The notes under the pieces: generated by a model
The model's database searches: none
What the model was told of the DNA's origin: nothing
What the model saw: only the letters and a program-made list of their open reading frames with translations
From: Nanopusillaceae archaeon
Lineage (GTDB): Archaea > Nanobdellota > Nanobdellia > Nanobdellales > Nanobdellaceae
Assembly: GCA_049973735.1 (NCBI GenBank)
Contig: JBMFJL010000039.1
Span: 1-5,729, forward strand
Direction: 5' to 3'
DNA length: 5,729 nt
Shown: piece after piece, positions 1,766 through 5,679 of the stretch
Layout: every line of letters begins with the position of its first letter
How positions within the stretch are numbered: the first letter of the stretch is position 1
Translations under genes and position numbers: made by a program

Positions 1766-1810
1766 ATTATTAAAACTCCTCCTAAACTATCTTATATCAG
1801 AATAATAATA

Positions 1811-1862
1811 AGCTTAAAAATTTTTTATAATTTATTTAGCTTAAAAATTTTTAAAATTTATA
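1811..1862. repeat. Two tandem ~27-bp direct repeats in the divergent intergenic region
   Basis: AGCTTAAAAATTTTT occurs at 1811..1825 and again at 1838..1852, identical at 15/15 positions. The tails (TATAATTTAT versus AAAATTTAT) are similar apart from one indel. The A5T5/6 core is self-complementary. Confidence 0.8.
1813..1826 (-). promoter_or_regulatory. Candidate BRE/TATA-like box for the GT2 gene
   Basis: The minus strand reads AAAAAATTTTTAAG. Its TATA-like part is centred about 26 nt upstream of position ~1790, which would give a ~25-nt leader containing the AGGAGGAG site. A second copy lies 27 bp further upstream at 1852..1840. Confidence 0.35.
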
Positions 1863-2259
1863 ATTAATTTAAAAATAACAACAATTAATTCATTATAATA
1901 TTATTAAAAATGTTTATAAGATCTATTTATTAAAACGTTATGTTTCTCTATTATGTTATTATTTGATAAAAAGAATTTTCAATCTTATATCATTGTTCTT
2001 TTAAGCTAATAAATGTTTAATGTTTAGTTATAGCTGATTGTTTTTTATAATAAATATTTTAGTTATTTTTAAATATTTATTAAAATAAATTAAATGAGCA
2101 GAAAATATTGTATTATTAGTTTGCTTGTTATGCGCGTGTATTTTAATCTGTAAGAGCCATACTATTTTTAAAATAAAGTTTGATTCAAAGTGTTTAGTAG
2201 CAATATTTATTAATTAATTGATTGTGATGAATTGAAAATATATTTGCTTTAATTAGTAT

Positions 2260-2272
2260 GAAAATTTTTATA
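2260..2272 (+). promoter_or_regulatory. Candidate BRE/TATA box for the plus-strand gene set
   Basis: GAAAATTTTTATA. The TATA-like TTTTTATA at 2265..2272 is centred about 47 nt before the TTG at 2316. The predicted start near 2295 gives a ~20-nt leader carrying GAGGTG (2305..2310). Confidence 0.45.
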
Positions 2273-2315
2273 GCTAAACGGAAATATTCCTATTTGATTG
2301 ATTAGAGGTGTAACA

Positions 2316-2768
2316 TTGGACAAAAAGTTAATAATTATCACTTTAATAATTATTACAATAGCTTTACAGTTTTCAATGATATCCAAAGCTAATAAAATAA
2401 CATGCAATGCTACAATAAATAATATAGAAACCGCTTATAATTATTTGGAGAAAGTATCGTCTATGGGTTATAATTCAAATTATGAAAATGATCTAAAACT
2501 TTCAATTAACTATTTAAATATGGGAATTAATAAAAACAACATCAGTTATTGTATTAAATCTTATAATATATCTAGTAATATTTTGAATAATTCTTCAGAG
2601 TTTCTAAATAAGGCCAAAAGTTTATATTATGATAAAATTTTTGAGAATGTTTTAATTATATCTATATTGTTTGCATCTTCTTATATTTCTTACAGGTTTG
2701 TACCAACAATATTTTGGATAGCATGGCTTAAAGCTCATGAAAATTATGAGGTGAAGGAAAACGATTGA
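2316..2768 (+). CDS. Small bitopic membrane/secreted protein with an N-terminal hydrophobic signal/anchor, a sequon-rich helical middle and a C-terminal TM helix; function unknown
   Basis: The ORF track gives 2298..2768 with a TTG start. An in-frame TTG at 2316 sits 5 nt after GAGGTG (2305..2310) and gives MDKKLIIITLIIITIALQF..., so I prefer it. The middle contains the sequons NAT, NIS, NIS, NNS and NSS and two Cys residues. The C-terminus has a hydrophobic stretch, VLIISILFASSYISYRFVPTIFWIAWL. I recognise no family. Confidence 0.65.
   Translation: MDKKLIIITLIIITIALQFSMISKANKITCNATINNIETAYNYLEKVSSMGYNSNYENDLKLSINYLNMGINKNNISYCIKSYNISSNILNNSSEFLNKAKSLYYDKIFENVLIISILFASSYISYRFVPTIFWIAWLKAHENYEVKEND
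2748..2754 (+). promoter_or_regulatory. Shine-Dalgarno (GAGGTGA) for the next gene, embedded in the 3' end of the previous CDS
   Basis: It is a full match to the motif used before the other genes here (GAGGTG at 2305, GGTGA at 3225, AGGTGG at 3885). It lies 9 nt before ATT 2764, 10 nt before TTG 2765 and 13 nt before ATG 2768. Confidence 0.55.
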
Positions 2769-3234
2769 TGATAAAATAAGAGATATAACGGCTGGTTTCT
2801 TTATTGTAATAGCAATAATTTTTTCCATCAATTTCCTAATGGAAAACTGGAAACCAGGCTCCTATAGTTTGTTGGCTTTATTAAATGGAAATAAAGAATT
2901 AGGAGGCTATCCAAGTGAAGTTCAAGTAAATTCTACATCGAGCTTTTACATTTATATAGAAAACCACGAGAACAAATTGGCTTTATATGAAATAAAAATT
3001 TATATTGTTAATTCCTCTTTTATCTTAAATTCAACAAGTCTGCAAAAATGTAAACCCTATTACATTTTTTACGATATAATAAACAATAATAAAAACGATA
3101 CAATTCCATTTAATGTTACTTTTAATAAACCAGGTCAATATAAAATATTGATTTTATTATATATGTTTAATGGTAGTAATTTTAATTATACAGGATTATA
3201 CAATCAATTTTATATTAATTCTACGGTGAGATAA
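2764..3234 (+). CDS. TM-anchored extracellular domain matching the C-terminal module of DUF1616; heavily sequon-decorated; start codon unresolved
   Basis: The ORF track starts at ATG 2839, but the frame is open from 2755. It encodes a clean TM anchor upstream of that ATG: (I)DDKIRDITAGFFIVIAIIFSINFL-MENWKPG. The pattern LLNGNKELGGYPSEVQVNSTSSFYIYIENHENKLALYEIKIYI ... PGQYKILILLYMF matches my recollection of the DUF1616 C-half ('EFYLLG..G.A.dYP....Ge....igi.NHE....Y.l.v ... kl.flLy'). There are eight N-x-S/T sequons after the anchor. Confidence 0.75.
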   Translation: MDDKIRDITAGFFIVIAIIFSINFLMENWKPGSYSLLALLNGNKELGGYPSEVQVNSTSSFYIYIENHENKLALYEIKIYIVNSSFILNSTSLQKCKPYYIFYDIINNNKNDTIPFNVTFNKPGQYKILILLYMFNGSNFNYTGLYNQFYINSTVR

Positions 3235-3803
3235 TGGATTCTATAGAGGACGAAATTATTAAATATTTGAATAAAAATAAAAATAAAAAAAATAAAGTTA
3301 AAGACGTTACAATTTATCTGGACAATATTTCTAAAAAAATGGTTAATAAAAAAGACGTAAGCAAATCTATTTATAAGTTAAGAGAGCAGAGAAAAATAAG
3401 TTTAATAAAAAAGGGAAACTATATTAATTATTTCTTTAGTGTGGAAAATTCATGGTATCTTTTTTCGATTTCTATAATGATAATCTCATTTATTTCATCA
3501 TTATTTTTAAACGATAAATTTATTTTAATAAAGGGTATCTTAGTTTCGCCACTTTTATTTTTCTATCCTGGCTATGGTATAGTAGAATTGGCTTATCCTA
3601 AATCTGAATGGAATGATTTGGAAAAGGTCGCGTTGTCTATAGGATTAAGTCTTGCATCATTAGCAATAATTGGTTATATACTCAATTTTACTTATGCTGG
3701 TTTAAATGTTAAAAGCGTTTCTTTATCCCTTTTAATCTTTTCAATAGTATTATTAATATTGTCTAATTTTAGAAAATTTATTGAAAAAAGTGATAATTTA
3801 TGA
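3234..3803 (+). CDS. Putative winged-helix-like N-terminal domain fused to a 4-TM domain matching the N-terminal module of DUF1616
   Basis: ATG 3234 overlaps the upstream TAA (TAATG), and GGTGA (3225..3229) lies 4 nt upstream, which suggests translational coupling. The segment LVSPLLFFYPGYGIVELAYPKSEWNDLEKVALSIGLSLASLAIIGYILNFTYAGLNV matches the recalled DUF1616 N-half ('lPGY.l.aalfP....l..iERvaLSfGLSia.vPliGl.LN.Tp.Gi'). Residues 1-65 (SIEDEIIKYL...KDVTIYLDNIS...KKDVSKSIYKLREQRKISLIKKGNYINY) have a helix / helix-turn-helix / beta-wing pattern. With four TMs both ends are predicted cytoplasmic, consistent with the RKFIEK tail. Confidence 0.8.
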   Translation: MDSIEDEIIKYLNKNKNKKNKVKDVTIYLDNISKKMVNKKDVSKSIYKLREQRKISLIKKGNYINYFFSVENSWYLFSISIMIISFISSLFLNDKFILIKGILVSPLLFFYPGYGIVELAYPKSEWNDLEKVALSIGLSLASLAIIGYILNFTYAGLNVKSVSLSLLIFSIVLLILSNFRKFIEKSDNL

Positions 3804-3849
3804 TAGGTTTTGGAAAAGACGTTATTATATTCTTATTTATTAGAAAATT

Positions 3850-3862
3850 AAAAATTTTTATA
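3850..3862 (+). promoter_or_regulatory. Candidate BRE/TATA box upstream of the 594-aa membrane protein gene
   Basis: AAAAATTTTTATA, the same 12-mer core as at 2261..2272. It is centred about 36 nt before ATG 3895, so the leader would be only ~10 nt and would overlap AGGTGG (3885..3890). Whether this is an internal promoter or read-through from upstream cannot be decided from sequence. Confidence 0.35.
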
Positions 3863-3894
3863 ATTATTTCTATAAATTAAACTAAGGTGGGAGA

Positions 3895-5679
3895 ATGAAG
3901 CTACATAAAATTATACTGACTGTCCTACTGGTTCTAGGTACATTATTTGGATTAATTTATGCCTATTTAATGATGAAAGCAGGAGCTATGGGAATTTATG
4001 GAATTAATGATATATATGGCCCTCTATCGAGAAGTCCACTTTTATCAGTATTTCTTATATTGTCAATGTCTTTTTTGCTAATTGCATCAACAATTAGCCT
4101 AAACAAAGATAAAAAAGTATTCATATTTATAACAATTTATTCTATTATAACGATAGCTTTCTTAAGGTATTTTTGGCCTGATTTCGCTAATTATTACTAC
4201 ATGACAGATTTTGAAGATTCATTTGGTCATAATTTGCAAGCGACATACATAACTACTAATGGACATATTTGGTATGGTACATTTTCATCACTTCAACCAG
4301 GTTTTTGGTTGACATTAGCGGAAATAGTTTTAATGATATTTGGTAAGACTAATAGCCTAACTTCTCCTCCTTTTTATTTCTTTATTAAATGGTATACAAC
4401 GATTTTCATTCTGATTTCTATACCTGTCATTTATATAACATTTAAACTGTATGGTCTTAACGATAGGCAGACAATGATAGCATTAATTGTTTACCTTATA
4501 ATATCTCCTCAGTTCGCTTATGTCATATCAAACGATTATGCAATAATACCTTTTGCTTTATCTTCTGGTTTTTTTATTAAGGCTTTAAAATCAAATAAAA
4601 TTAGAGATTATATAATATTTATGATAACCTTTTTCTTTTCAGCTTTAAATCACCTTTTAATTTTACTATGGCTTTCTTTTGGTATTTTGGGAGCTTCTAT
4701 GCTGATGATAATCTTACCTAAAATTAATATACCTAAAAGAAATGCATTTTATATATTTTTAAGTATAATATCTTTGTATTTATTAAGGTTAAGCTTATTA
4801 CCTAGAAGCTTTGTAACATCAAATGTTAACGGAGTCTTGTATTCTATTAATACGGGCCTTAAGTCTTTAATTGATCTATTTGTTAAACCAAGATCAAGTG
4901 CTTTTATTACAGAATCTGTTAGGGCATTACCTTCTTATACTTTTGCAGTTAGAATTAAAGAGCTAGACTACATGTATTTATTGGCAATTCCTTTTTTTGT
5001 TCTACTTTCTTTTAGTATTATAAATAAAAAAATAGAATATAAAGTTCTACTTCTTTTCATTATTTTTAGTGGGCTAATTGCAGGCTTACAAGTTATCGGA
5101 ATGGGAGGTGTTGGGTGGGCAGATAGATTGCCTAAAGACCTGCTTCCAATATTGGCCTTTTCGTTTTCATCAATTTTATTTTTAGGAGAAAACAGAAAAA
5201 ATAAACAACTTAAAATTAAAAAAATTATAAAAGTGGTTGGCGTTTCGCTCATAATAATTGCCTCAACATTATCATTGTTTGCTACATATGCTGGATATTC
5301 AACTGTAGCATTTCCATATAGCGAGCCATTTGGAGAGGCAGGTATAGGGATAGGAATTACTAATCATACGTCACCCAATTTTGATTTTTATTATTATGTT
5401 GATTTTGGACTTCCACTTTTATCTTATAGTTCTCCACCTATGTATTATGAGTTTGCTTGGACCTACTTTATTTATGGTGTCTATAGTATATATCCTAATG
5501 CTACCTACCTATTAAACACTATTAATAATATTTCATCAAAATCTAACATTGTTTTGATGACTCCAACAGATTTTATTTTCCAGAAAACATGGCCTTACCA
5601 CAAATTACCACAAATAATAAAACGAGAATGGATAATAGCATTGTTGAGAAAACATTTAACAAATCAAAATATTGGTTAA
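3895..5679 (+). CDS. Large polytopic membrane protein (about 14 TM helices) with a ~125-aa aromatic-rich C-terminal ectodomain; possibly a GT-C-fold glycosyltransferase or glycan polymerase (DUF2206-like?)
   Basis: 594-aa ORF with an ATG 5 nt after AGGTGG. Hydrophobic segments run throughout. The short loops NKDKK, KSNKIRD and ENRKNKQLKIKK follow the positive-inside rule. Under this topology the acidic motif MTDFEDSFGH falls in a predicted outside loop. The C-terminal region carries the sequons NHT, NAT and NIS. The family assignment rests only on architecture and neighbourhood. Confidence 0.85.
   Translation: MKLHKIILTVLLVLGTLFGLIYAYLMMKAGAMGIYGINDIYGPLSRSPLLSVFLILSMSFLLIASTISLNKDKKVFIFITIYSIITIAFLRYFWPDFANYYYMTDFEDSFGHNLQATYITTNGHIWYGTFSSLQPGFWLTLAEIVLMIFGKTNSLTSPPFYFFIKWYTTIFILISIPVIYITFKLYGLNDRQTMIALIVYLIISPQFAYVISNDYAIIPFALSSGFFIKALKSNKIRDYIIFMITFFFSALNHLLILLWLSFGILGASMLMIILPKINIPKRNAFYIFLSIISLYLLRLSLLPRSFVTSNVNGVLYSINTGLKSLIDLFVKPRSSAFITESVRALPSYTFAVRIKELDYMYLLAIPFFVLLSFSIINKKIEYKVLLLFIIFSGLIAGLQVIGMGGVGWADRLPKDLLPILAFSFSSILFLGENRKNKQLKIKKIIKVVGVSLIIIASTLSLFATYAGYSTVAFPYSEPFGEAGIGIGITNHTSPNFDFYYYVDFGLPLLSYSSPPMYYEFAWTYFIYGVYSIYPNATYLLNTINNISSKSNIVLMTPTDFIFQKTWPYHKLPQIIKREWIIALLRKHLTNQNIG

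Follow-up and report, generated by a model that had tools for sequence, protein, structure and literature searches.

A three-gene split DUF1616 membrane module with a winged-helix-like domain in a Nanopusillaceae archaeon

Described DUF1616 proteins and the genes of the window

Canonical DUF1616 proteins (PF07760; COG4743/arCOG02884), such as HVO_2173 of Haloferax volcanii and MMP0360 of Methanococcus maripaludis, are encoded in a neighbourhood similar to that of the genes described here (PMC5898192). The DUF1616 ectodomain, which is TM-anchored and lies outside the cell in HVO_2173, is predicted to be Ig-like (PMC6393860, PMC5898192). In the canonical chains P0095 and P0120, Pfam positions 3-307 are contained in one chain. 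An operon around DUF4350, MoxR and DUF58 was predicted from gene context in 2015 to be a secretion or surface system, and pfam07760 proteins with "2 or 4 TMs" and "membrane proteins with 2-3 TMs" are already among its listed components (PMC5898192). Text searches of that paper found no mention of a winged-helix/HTH domain, of a split into complementary halves or of fusions (PMC5898192).

The window, that is, the whole stretch of 5,729 nucleotides analysed here, derives from a contig of a Nanopusillaceae archaeon. It contains three adjoining genes, G, C and WT, and a gene for a 594-aa membrane protein (Table 1). The genes share with canonical DUF1616 proteins the four-TM core motifs PGY, ER and LNYTPWG as well as a TM-anchored ectodomain. 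Unlike the canonical proteins, no gene of the window carries the whole PF07760 model (four-TM block, linker, fifth TM and ectodomain) in one chain. Specifically, the two halves are separate genes, the ectodomain gene comes first and the linker is absent, while a winged helix is added N-terminally to the four-TM gene and the third gene G lies alongside. No tRNA or Rfam feature was found in the window, and an NCBIfam search of its proteins returned nothing useful.

Table 1. Coordinates of the features in the window
Feature	Position	Strand	Basis or remark
Gene G	2298..2768 (probable start TTG 2316)	+	ORF list; GGTG at 2307-2310 precedes TTG
GGTGA Shine-Dalgarno-like element	2750..2754	+	6 nt upstream of codon 2761, within conserved Y-E-V-K codons of G
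Gene C, DUF1616 C-half	2761..3234	+	PF07760 profile 164-286; alignment to 157-aa homologues starting MIDDKI
Winged-helix-like (Z-alpha-like) cytoplasmic domain of WT, residues 1-64 (probable side)	3234..3425	+	AF2, family profile
Four-TM DUF1616 N-half of WT (whole gene 3234-3803)	3441..3794	+	PF07760 profile 4-117
594-aa polytopic membrane protein	3895..5679	+	Orthologue or paralogue of the full operon's last gene (563-572 aa)

In the Pfam search, the translated frame 2755-3231 matches positions 164-286 of the 307-position DUF1616 profile (E = 5e-8, 32.9 bits), barely exceeding the gathering cut-off of 31.6 bits, and the ORF 3234-3803 matches positions 4-117 well above that cut-off (E = 1.1e-15, 58.1 bits). 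The first-pass annotation had described the two ORFs as complementary halves of DUF1616 in swapped order, and the order of the profile segments bears this out. The linker, profile positions 118-163, is absent from the pair. Two truncated paralogues of the same DUF1616 region are ruled out because the Pfam coordinates do not overlap. PF07760 is likewise matched by all relatives sampled, 40 of 40 for WT and 20 of 20 for C.

At the junction of the halves, the stop codon TAA (3232-3234) of C and the start codon ATG (3234-3236) of WT have one base in common (TAATG). An artefact at this place, namely mis-assembly, a sequencing frameshift or truncated paralogues covering the same part of DUF1616, is highly improbable. 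The contig analysed is metagenomic and short, its genome is very rich in A+T, and the two assemblies differ by one real indel, located elsewhere than at the C/WT junction. However, the independent JGI contig L001 is base-identical over 2605-3924 (99.25% identity overall), C-WT junctions with a spacing of 0-2 nt recur in a complete genome and several MAGs, and the Pfam coordinates of the two ORFs are complementary. Mis-assembly at 3230-3240, which had been named as a condition that would undo the first interpretation, is excluded, since L001 is identical there and the pair is also present in the complete genome of Caldisphaera lagunensis and in other Nanopusillus contigs. A sequencing frameshift that splits G from C was rejected as well, because the same 8-nt overlap is found in L002, L005 and L086.

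Organization and distribution of G, C and WT

Gene C encodes a short cytoplasmic N-terminus, one TM helix (~2785-2838) and an ectodomain (2839-3231) with eight N-x-S/T sequons, and is 63-78% identical to its counterparts in L005 and L002. The ectodomain gives weak Pfam matches to the beta-sandwich families DUF3244, GBS_Bsp-like and Filamin, while a PDB profile search with the C-half found no match. The earlier proposal that the ectodomain is glycosylated agrees with the N-glycosylation reported for the ectodomain of the Haloferax homologue HVO_2173 (PMC8241124).

As first described, from 2755 on, gene C has no canonical start codon. Position 2755 is only the first codon past an in-frame stop, no ATG, GTG or TTG occurs in frame before 2839, and the first ATG, at 2839, lies downstream of the TM helix. 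The start of the homologues (M-I-D-D-K-I) aligns to ACG at 2761 in the window, and the next codon, at 2764, is ATT. The tetranucleotide GGTG occurs nine times on the + strand, and at four of these a gene start follows after 4-6 nt (G, C, WT and the 594-aa gene).

Gene G encodes an N-terminal TM helix, a helical ectodomain with five sequons, a second TM helix and a cytoplasmic tail (WLKAHENYEVKEND). In L002 and L005, the gene preceding the C-half shares 42-49% identity with G, and a purpose-built G HMM indicates that G adjoins C or WT in most loci. Thus, the system that had been taken for a two-chain one comprises three chains, G (2298/2316-2768) being an obligatory partner that had been overlooked.

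The TM helices of WT span residues 70-91, 94-120, 128-151 and 159-187 in the AF2 model, with pLDDT of 86-97. The motifs PGY, E-K/R, SxGLSLA and LN(F/Y)T..G form invariant or near-invariant alignment columns. Foldseek with the whole WT model found nothing in the PDB at E<1; its matches are generic 4-helix TM bundles of Cys-loop receptors.

The WT architecture (winged helix plus four TM helices, ~200 aa) is represented by 2247 cluster representatives at E<=1e-3, and the best 150 of these are mostly 185-215 aa long and aligned over the full query. In a second search, all 120 matches listed are 188-237 aa long and carry PF07760. A scan of GTDB species genomes, for which the query was an alignment of eight closer sequences, gave 492 WT-type loci. 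C and/or G adjoin WT in 71 of the 75 loci with enough flank, and four loci have WT without C or G within 5 kb. The order G-C-WT of the window is found in 49 of 83 loci. The split three-gene form is present in sampled Thermoproteota lineages, two Asgard MAGs and Nanopusillaceae (DPANN); in many archaea, the DUF1616 family normally takes this split layout with a third gene and a winged helix. What the first-pass annotation regarded as an unusual permutation, with C upstream of WT, is therefore standard for a very large clade.

Other lineages join the same parts in several ways. Fused G-C is transcribed divergently from WT in 12 loci, C-G-W-T forms a single ORF in P0077, L059, L067, L073, L076 and L079, and G-WT fusions occur in P0035 and P0037. 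Every fusion has a topology that allows the winged helix to lie in the cytoplasm and C and G outside, and the distribution of sequons agrees with this. The occurrence of G-C, G-WT and C-G-WT fusions in other lineages makes it probable that the three products belong to a single membrane complex, consistent with the earlier suggestion of a multi-chain complex. Gene order is free, as seen from the 12 loci with divergent G-C and WT and five with C-G-WT in a single ORF. This freedom, together with the intervening G and winged helix, leaves the proposed tandem duplication followed by loss of the outer halves without specific support. Finally, the chains P0105, P0143 and P0061 have the layout T-T-T(-T)-C; because such methanogen-type proteins carry three to four tandem four-TM blocks before one ectodomain, the four-TM core probably oligomerises.

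The winged-helix-like domain of WT

The AF2 model of the 189-aa WT ORF, built on a 123-sequence alignment, has a mean pLDDT of 86.6 (68-83 for the winged-helix domain), compared with a poor pLDDT of 58 from a 3-sequence alignment. The domain has a three-helix core (helices 4-14, 22-32 and 39-51). A 31-sequence profile of the domain (A7) matches winged-helix proteins only in the PDB, with Z-alpha domains at the top (ADAR1, E = 1.2e-5; poxvirus 34L, 1.5e-5; PKZ and ZBP1 weaker, to 1e-2), followed by the winged helices of MarR, BlaI and Lrp. The three-helix fold and the Z-alpha matches at E ~1e-5 substantiate the winged-helix pattern noted earlier on residues 1-65. Our own W HMM scores 6e-10 on the window domain. 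In Pfam, the winged-helix matches of WT members are all sub-threshold, the most frequent being MCM4_WHD (9 of 40), and neither an OmpR/PhoB-type nor any other DNA-binding family matches WT above threshold.

The domain is probably cytoplasmic, as had been predicted, judging from its Lys/Arg-rich composition and its single N-x-S/T sequon in ~70 aa, compared with eight in the ectodomain. The net charge of the window domain is +10, in keeping with the Lys bias that goes with a genomic GC content of 25%; family-wide, the median net charge is +1 and 47% of the domains have pI<7.

Among solved structures, the Z-alpha domains of ADAR1, ZBP1, PKZ and poxvirus E3L/34L are the best profile match (E 1.2e-5 to 1e-2), and the similarity of the family profile to them is significant. 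Specifically, the helix-3 pattern K-K/R-x-E-x-x-R-x-(I/L)-Y-x-L is common to both. On the recognition helix, 103 of 123 members have R/K at the position of ADAR1 R174 and 87 of 123 have Tyr at that of Y177. Unlike Z-alpha, the WT domain is part of a polytopic membrane protein and does not keep Asn173 and Trp195: at the Asn173 position, the family consensus has Ala and the window protein Ser, and Trp195 is not conserved. The Pro-Pro wing (DPxPP) is present in the family consensus and missing from the window clade. Of the Z-DNA contact set Asn173, Tyr177, Pro192-Pro193 and Trp195, the window thus retains the Tyr alone (Y47).

Bacterial ToxR and CadC and ArnR of Sulfolobus are membrane-tethered one-component regulators. 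Similarly, the probably cytoplasmic winged-helix-type domain of WT leads straight into membrane helices, and an external domain could sense the envelope. In contrast to these regulators, WT has four conserved TM helices rather than one or two, and the external domains are on separate chains.

Operon context and proposed function

In the full operons of L002, L005, L086 and L087, the trio lies directly upstream of n229, n84, n610, DUF4350, MoxR, DUF58 and a 572-aa gene, an arrangement also shown by about half of the 80 loci surveyed. Across the 83 loci, many of them truncated, n229, n84, n610, DUF4350 and MoxR follow WT in ~27-43, depending on the gene. L002, L005, L086 and L087, where the nearest relatives of the window genes lie, belong to the system of Makarova et al. 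2015 (PMC5898192), whereas the window holds only G, C, WT and the terminal gene. These four genes show the operon combination of pfam07760 with small 2-3-TM membrane proteins described for that system (Makarova 2015). DUF4350, MoxR AAA+ and vWA/DUF58 neighbours are absent from the 5.7-kb window and L001, and n229, n84 and n610 are absent from the window; the link to that system is therefore made here via orthology with relatives.

The 594-aa protein is 62% identical over 558 aa to L087 9255-10970, and jackhmmer relates it to the gene that ends the operon in L002 and in L005. As an orthologue or paralogue of the operon's terminal gene, it belongs to the same system. It has no Pfam and no NCBIfam match, and BLAST does not match it to the gene of 607-622 aa located after WT in relatives, which was rejected as its homologue. 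The glycan-assembly role first assigned to this neighbour was abandoned, as no glycan-related family is matched and the conserved operon's last gene is the close relative.

Given the domains observed, the order of the genes, the broad conservation of the trio and the natural fusions elsewhere, we consider it probable (roughly 0.6) that 2298-3803 is a conserved three-gene split DUF1616 membrane module at the base of a predicted envelope apparatus. G would be a hairpin-anchored helical ectodomain, C a single-TM anchor with the DUF1616 ectodomain, predicted in the literature to be Ig-like, and WT a cytoplasmic winged helix followed by the four-TM DUF1616 core. The three products would assemble into one heteromeric membrane complex, as fusions and synteny suggest. 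This complex may serve as the membrane base of an envelope apparatus around DUF4350, the MoxR AAA+ ATPase and vWA/DUF58, acting in secretion or surface-layer assembly, and the winged helix, facing the cytoplasm, would serve in docking or regulation, with a protein or a nucleic acid as ligand.

A different role for the same proteins, that of a membrane-tethered transcription regulator or sensor in which the winged helix binds DNA under the control of external C (and G) in trans, is conceivable but doubtful. The placement of the winged helix immediately N-terminal to TM1 on the cytoplasmic side would suit such a role, as would the nearness of the profile to nucleic-acid-binding Z-alpha and then to regulators, the near-invariant basic residue and the Tyr at the R174 and Y177 positions, and the charge of the window domain. 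However, the domain is nearly neutral family-wide, its Pfam winged-helix matches are sub-threshold and the commonest, MCM4_WHD, is of a protein-interaction type. Moreover, canonical DUF1616 proteins (P0095, P0120) have the same four-TM core without a winged helix, so the function of the core is independent of it, and a strongly conserved four-TM domain is odd for a mere tether. That the domain is a true Z-alpha-related nucleic-acid binder and the trio a three-chain transmembrane signalling device is still less likely. Such a device would make the binding of DNA or RNA at the membrane responsive to the condition of the glycosylated surface or of the MoxR/vWA apparatus. In that case, archaea would have a widespread one-component system that has so far gone undescribed, and its Z-alpha-like domain would be the first with a membrane anchor.

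The module of the window could also be a decaying remnant, an operon acquired from a Caldisphaera-like host lineage and now being lost from this reduced nanoarchaeal genome, with C, perhaps the whole trio, now nonfunctional here; we regard this as unlikely. Four homologues of C have a canonical start at the position of its ACG, and no other canonical start precedes the TM helix in C; the six operon genes between WT and the 572-aa gene (L002, L086, L087, L005) are missing in the window, and the adjoining GT2-GtrA gene is frameshifted in the window strain. Decay or acquisition would also accord with the 42-78% identity between Nanopusillaceae and Caldisphaera versions, compared with <=35% for other lineages. 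On the other hand, the 26 codons of 2761-2838 are still open and conserved (GFFIVIAIIFSINFL vs GFFIIIAVIISINFA), the Shine-Dalgarno element ahead of 2761 is intact, neither of two strains shows damage to G, WT or the 594-aa gene, and the absent operon genes could lie elsewhere in the genome, of which 5.7 kb is visible. With Caldisphaera as outgroup, no rate acceleration relative to L002 is seen: identities to Caldisphaera for the window and L002 are 63% and 63% for C, 42% and 43% for G, and 56% and 61% for WT. Because the two sets of proteins are about equally distant from Caldisphaera (WT slightly lower), there is no sign of long-term decay. On the reading favoured here, the system is a reduced one in this Nanopusillaceae lineage: of the operon, G, C and WT have stayed together with the terminal 572-like gene alone, and C, with its near-cognate ACG, would be either weakly translated from ACG/ATT behind the intact Shine-Dalgarno element or recently crippled. 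The close likeness of the operons in Nanopusillaceae and Caldisphaera suggests that symbiont and host have exchanged genes of a cell-surface system.

The instance in the window is genuine, ordinary for its clade and somewhat eroded, a typical, partly reduced member rather than a unique rearrangement; as a class, the split architecture has received little description. Among the uncharacterised membrane systems of archaea, DUF1616/arCOG02884 and the DUF4350-MoxR-vWA operon rank with the more widely conserved ones. G, C and WT provide a concrete subunit list for structural and genetic work, with natural single-chain versions available to model, and the probably cytoplasmic Z-alpha-like winged helix on the four-TM core offers a handle on signalling to, or docking by, cytoplasmic partners.

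The divided DUF1616 domain

The first-pass annotation read a DUF1616 protein as two genes in swapped order, and hmmscan against Pfam agrees. The reading survives all the refuting conditions named in that annotation. The translation of 2755–3231 (C) matches PF07760 positions 164–286 of 307 (E 5e-8, 32.9 bits; cut-off 31.6 bits), and the downstream 189-aa ORF (WT) matches positions 4–117 (E 1.1e-15, 58.1 bits). The halves are complementary, the C-terminal one upstream, and their genes share the one-base overlap (TAATG) described earlier. The junction at 3230–3240 is genuine and not an assembly artefact, because an independent JGI contig (L001; 99.25% identity to the window, 31 mismatches, 2 indels) matches the window base for base over 2605–3924. 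The window (25% GC) matches a Nanopusillaceae archaeon MAG, and the NCBI product name of the 189-aa protein is "DUF1616 domain-containing protein".

The upstream gene does encode the DUF1616 C-half, but position 2755, where it had been started, is merely the first codon past a stop. The earliest in-frame ATG, GTG or TTG is at 2839, beyond the TM helix. The 157-aa homologues of C start with M-I-D-D-K-I, and the aligned window codons are ACG-ATT-GAT-GAT from 2761. GGTGA lies 6 nt 5' of this ACG; thus, C has an intact ribosome-binding site but a near-cognate start codon, in both strains. GGTG is scarce on the + strand (nine copies), and four copies sit 4–6 nt before the starts of G, C, WT and a 594-aa gene. 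The conserved C-terminal peptide of G, N-Y-E-V-K, is encoded by AAT TAT GAG GTG AAG, which includes a Shine-Dalgarno-like GAGGTGA for C, and this double role may account for part of its conservation.

Gene G is kept immediately 5' of the C-half in Nanopusillus sp. L002 (49% identity) and Caldisphaera lagunensis L005 (42%), and an 8-nt G/C overlap is common to the window, L002, L005 and the Nanopusillus-like locus L086. By these comparisons, G is a third gene of one set with C and WT.

Features of the window
Feature	Position	Strand	Description
GtrA-domain gene	651–1765	−	
8 extra nt relative to L001	1291–1318	−	within the minus-strand GtrA-domain gene, inside a short AAAAAATAG-type repeat
Spacer	1766–2297		~530 bp, very AT-rich (17–21% GC), between the divergent GT2-GtrA gene and G
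TTTATA box	around 2268		within the spacer
Gene G	2298–2768, probable start TTG 2316	+	N-terminal TM, helical sequon-rich segment, second TM, tail WLKAHENYEVKEND
N-Y-E-V-K of G	2746–2768	+	conserved C-terminal peptide
C	2761–3231	+	TM and ectodomain
WT	3234–3803	+	winged helix and four-TM (4TM) block
N-x-T sequon of WT	3684–3692	+	NFT, residues 151–153
594-aa gene	3895–5679	+	membrane protein

Gene order, fusions and topology

When 1.84 billion cluster representatives were searched with a profile built from WT and the two close homologues, 2247 proteins were retrieved at E<=1e-3, 483 of them at <=1e-10. The best 150 of the 2247 are overwhelmingly 185–215 aa and align over the full query, namely the N-terminal soluble domain and 4TM. 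A second protein search gave 480 matches; the 120 listed are all 188–237 aa with PF07760, and NCBI-named members among them come from Parvarchaeota, Nitrososphaerota and Bathyarchaeia. Scanning one genome per GTDB species yielded 492 loci, the best 80 of which belong to Bathyarchaeia, Nitrososphaeria, Desulfurococcales, Thermofilaceae, Methanomethylicia and Geothermarchaeota, and also include two MAGs, one labelled Baldrarchaeota and the other Odinarchaeota.

Gene orders were read at 83 loci with our own HMMs for C, G, the winged helix (W) and 4TM (T) run on stop-to-stop ORFs. The window's order, G-C-WT, occurs at 49 loci, a fused G-C gene transcribed divergently from WT at 12, a single C-G-W-T ORF at five and C-WT at three; WT-G-C and G on the opposite strand followed by WT occur once each. 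WT stands alone at 12 loci. Eight of these have no upstream sequence, and partners adjoin WT in 71 of the remaining 75 informative loci. In the other four (L031, L042, L047, L062), neither C nor G lies within 5 kb of WT in either direction, although L047 retains the downstream n229..MoxR genes; in these loci the partners may be located at another site or may not be needed. The swapped layout is therefore not the unusual permutation it had been taken for; the window carries an ordinary member of a split form of DUF1616, made of three genes, that is widespread. An origin by tandem duplication and loss finds no specific support, because neither order nor strand is fixed and because G and the winged helix come in between.

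Fusions define G, C and WT as a predicted complex. P0077 (501 aa), with two Pfam DUF1616 stretches, runs from TM and ectodomain through a G-like helical segment, TM and WAKAHRGW to winged helix and 4TM; P0035 and P0037 join a G-like part to winged helix and 4TM. Canonical P0095 and P0120 cover PF07760 3–307 as 4TM, linker, TM and ectodomain, without a winged helix. P0061, P0105 and P0143 (606–760 aa) carry 3–4 tandem 4TM blocks before a single TM and ectodomain, which suggests that the 4TM module oligomerises and hints at a 3–4:1 stoichiometry or a pseudo-oligomeric pore-like core.

All arrangements are compatible with one topology, in which the winged helix and the tail of G face the inside and the domains of C and G the exterior. 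The sequons are distributed accordingly: eight in the C ectodomain, five in G and one in the ~70-aa winged-helix segment despite its 11 Asn. Four N-glycosites that depend on AglB are present in HVO_2173, a DUF1616 protein of Haloferax (PMC8241124). The sequon at WT residues 151–153, in the 4TM domain, falls within a near-invariant external loop motif, LNYTPWG(I) (family alignment), which may be structural or may mark a conserved site of glycosylation.

Neighbourhood and state of the locus

In L002, L086, L087 (Nanopusillus-like) and L005, the operon reads 288, 356 and 512 aa, ABC ATPase, G, C, WT, 229, 84 and ~600 aa, DUF4350, MoxR AAA+, DUF58 and ~570 aa. Neighbour profiles place n229, n84, n610, DUF4350 and MoxR 3' of WT, with counts that range, gene by gene, over about 27–43 of the 83 loci. 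This neighbourhood was put forward by Makarova, Galperin and Koonin (2015) as a novel secretion or membrane-remodelling system (PMC5898192; also PMC6393860). A table of PMC5898192 includes pfam07760 proteins with "2 or 4 TMs"; text searches of that paper found nothing on HTH domains, fusions or a division into complementary halves. The split form is already database-annotated and lies inside a system predicted in 2015.

In the window, the 594-aa gene directly follows WT and six intervening operon genes are missing. Its product shares 62% identity with the 572-aa protein at the end of the relatives' operon; it has no Pfam or NCBIfam match, so the earlier "glycan-assembly" label is unsupported. 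In L001 (5580–5759), a tandem paralogue begins after an 84-aa minus-strand gene (shared MTDFEDSF..LQPGFWLTLAEI segment). On the other side of the trio, the 8-nt excess breaks a 368-aa GtrA-domain gene, intact in L001 (286–1392), into overlapping 226-aa and 165-aa ORFs, which looks like a strain-level slippage frameshift. The N-terminal part of the 368-aa protein has no Pfam match, so its GT2 domain is only assumed. Searches of the spacer for RNA families and tRNAs gave no match; it probably holds both promoters.

Partial and recent decay of the locus in the window lineage is a possibility to which the ACG start of C, the missing operon genes and the GT2-GtrA frameshift, restricted to the window strain, all point. 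However, the TM codons of C before 2839 are open and conserved, its Shine-Dalgarno element is intact, and the window and L002 proteins are about equally far from the Caldisphaera outgroup (identity 63% vs 63% for C, 42% vs 43% for G), with WT slightly lower in the window (56% vs 61%).

Between Nanopusillaceae and Caldisphaera (Acidilobales), proteins encoded at window 2298–5679 and in L002, L086, L087 and L005 are 42–78% identical. Gene order is the same in both versions, and every other lineage is <=35% identical to WT. This cell-surface operon is a candidate for symbiont-host horizontal transfer.

The N-terminal domain of WT

The AF2 model of WT (123-sequence alignment; mean pLDDT 86.6, pTM 0.69) contains helices 4–14, 22–32 and 39–51, an amphipathic helix and four TM helices. 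Foldseek with the whole model found no significant match in the PDB. A domain-only profile (31 sequences) matched PDB entries of ADAR1 Z-alpha (1.2e-5), yatapoxvirus 34L (1.5e-5), PKZ, ZBP1/DLM-1 and ORF112, followed by MarR, Hop2, BlaI and Lrp winged helices; Pfam winged-helix matches are sub-threshold only (e.g. MCM4_WHD in 9 of 40 members). The predicted helices and the PDB matches, all winged helices, uphold the fold proposed in the first-pass annotation. Counterparts of R174 and Y177 of ADAR1 are conserved in the WT family, as is a DPxPP motif in the wing; N173 and W195 are not kept, and the window clade lacks the Pro-Pro. Net charge of the domain is about neutral family-wide and +10 in the window protein, which fits a Lys-rich proteome.

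Nucleic-acid binding by this domain is possible, and a putative membrane sensor-regulator built from G, C and WT is a minority reading. At the level of the class, the partner gene G, the series of fusions and the Z-alpha-like domain on the cytoplasmic side seem under-described.
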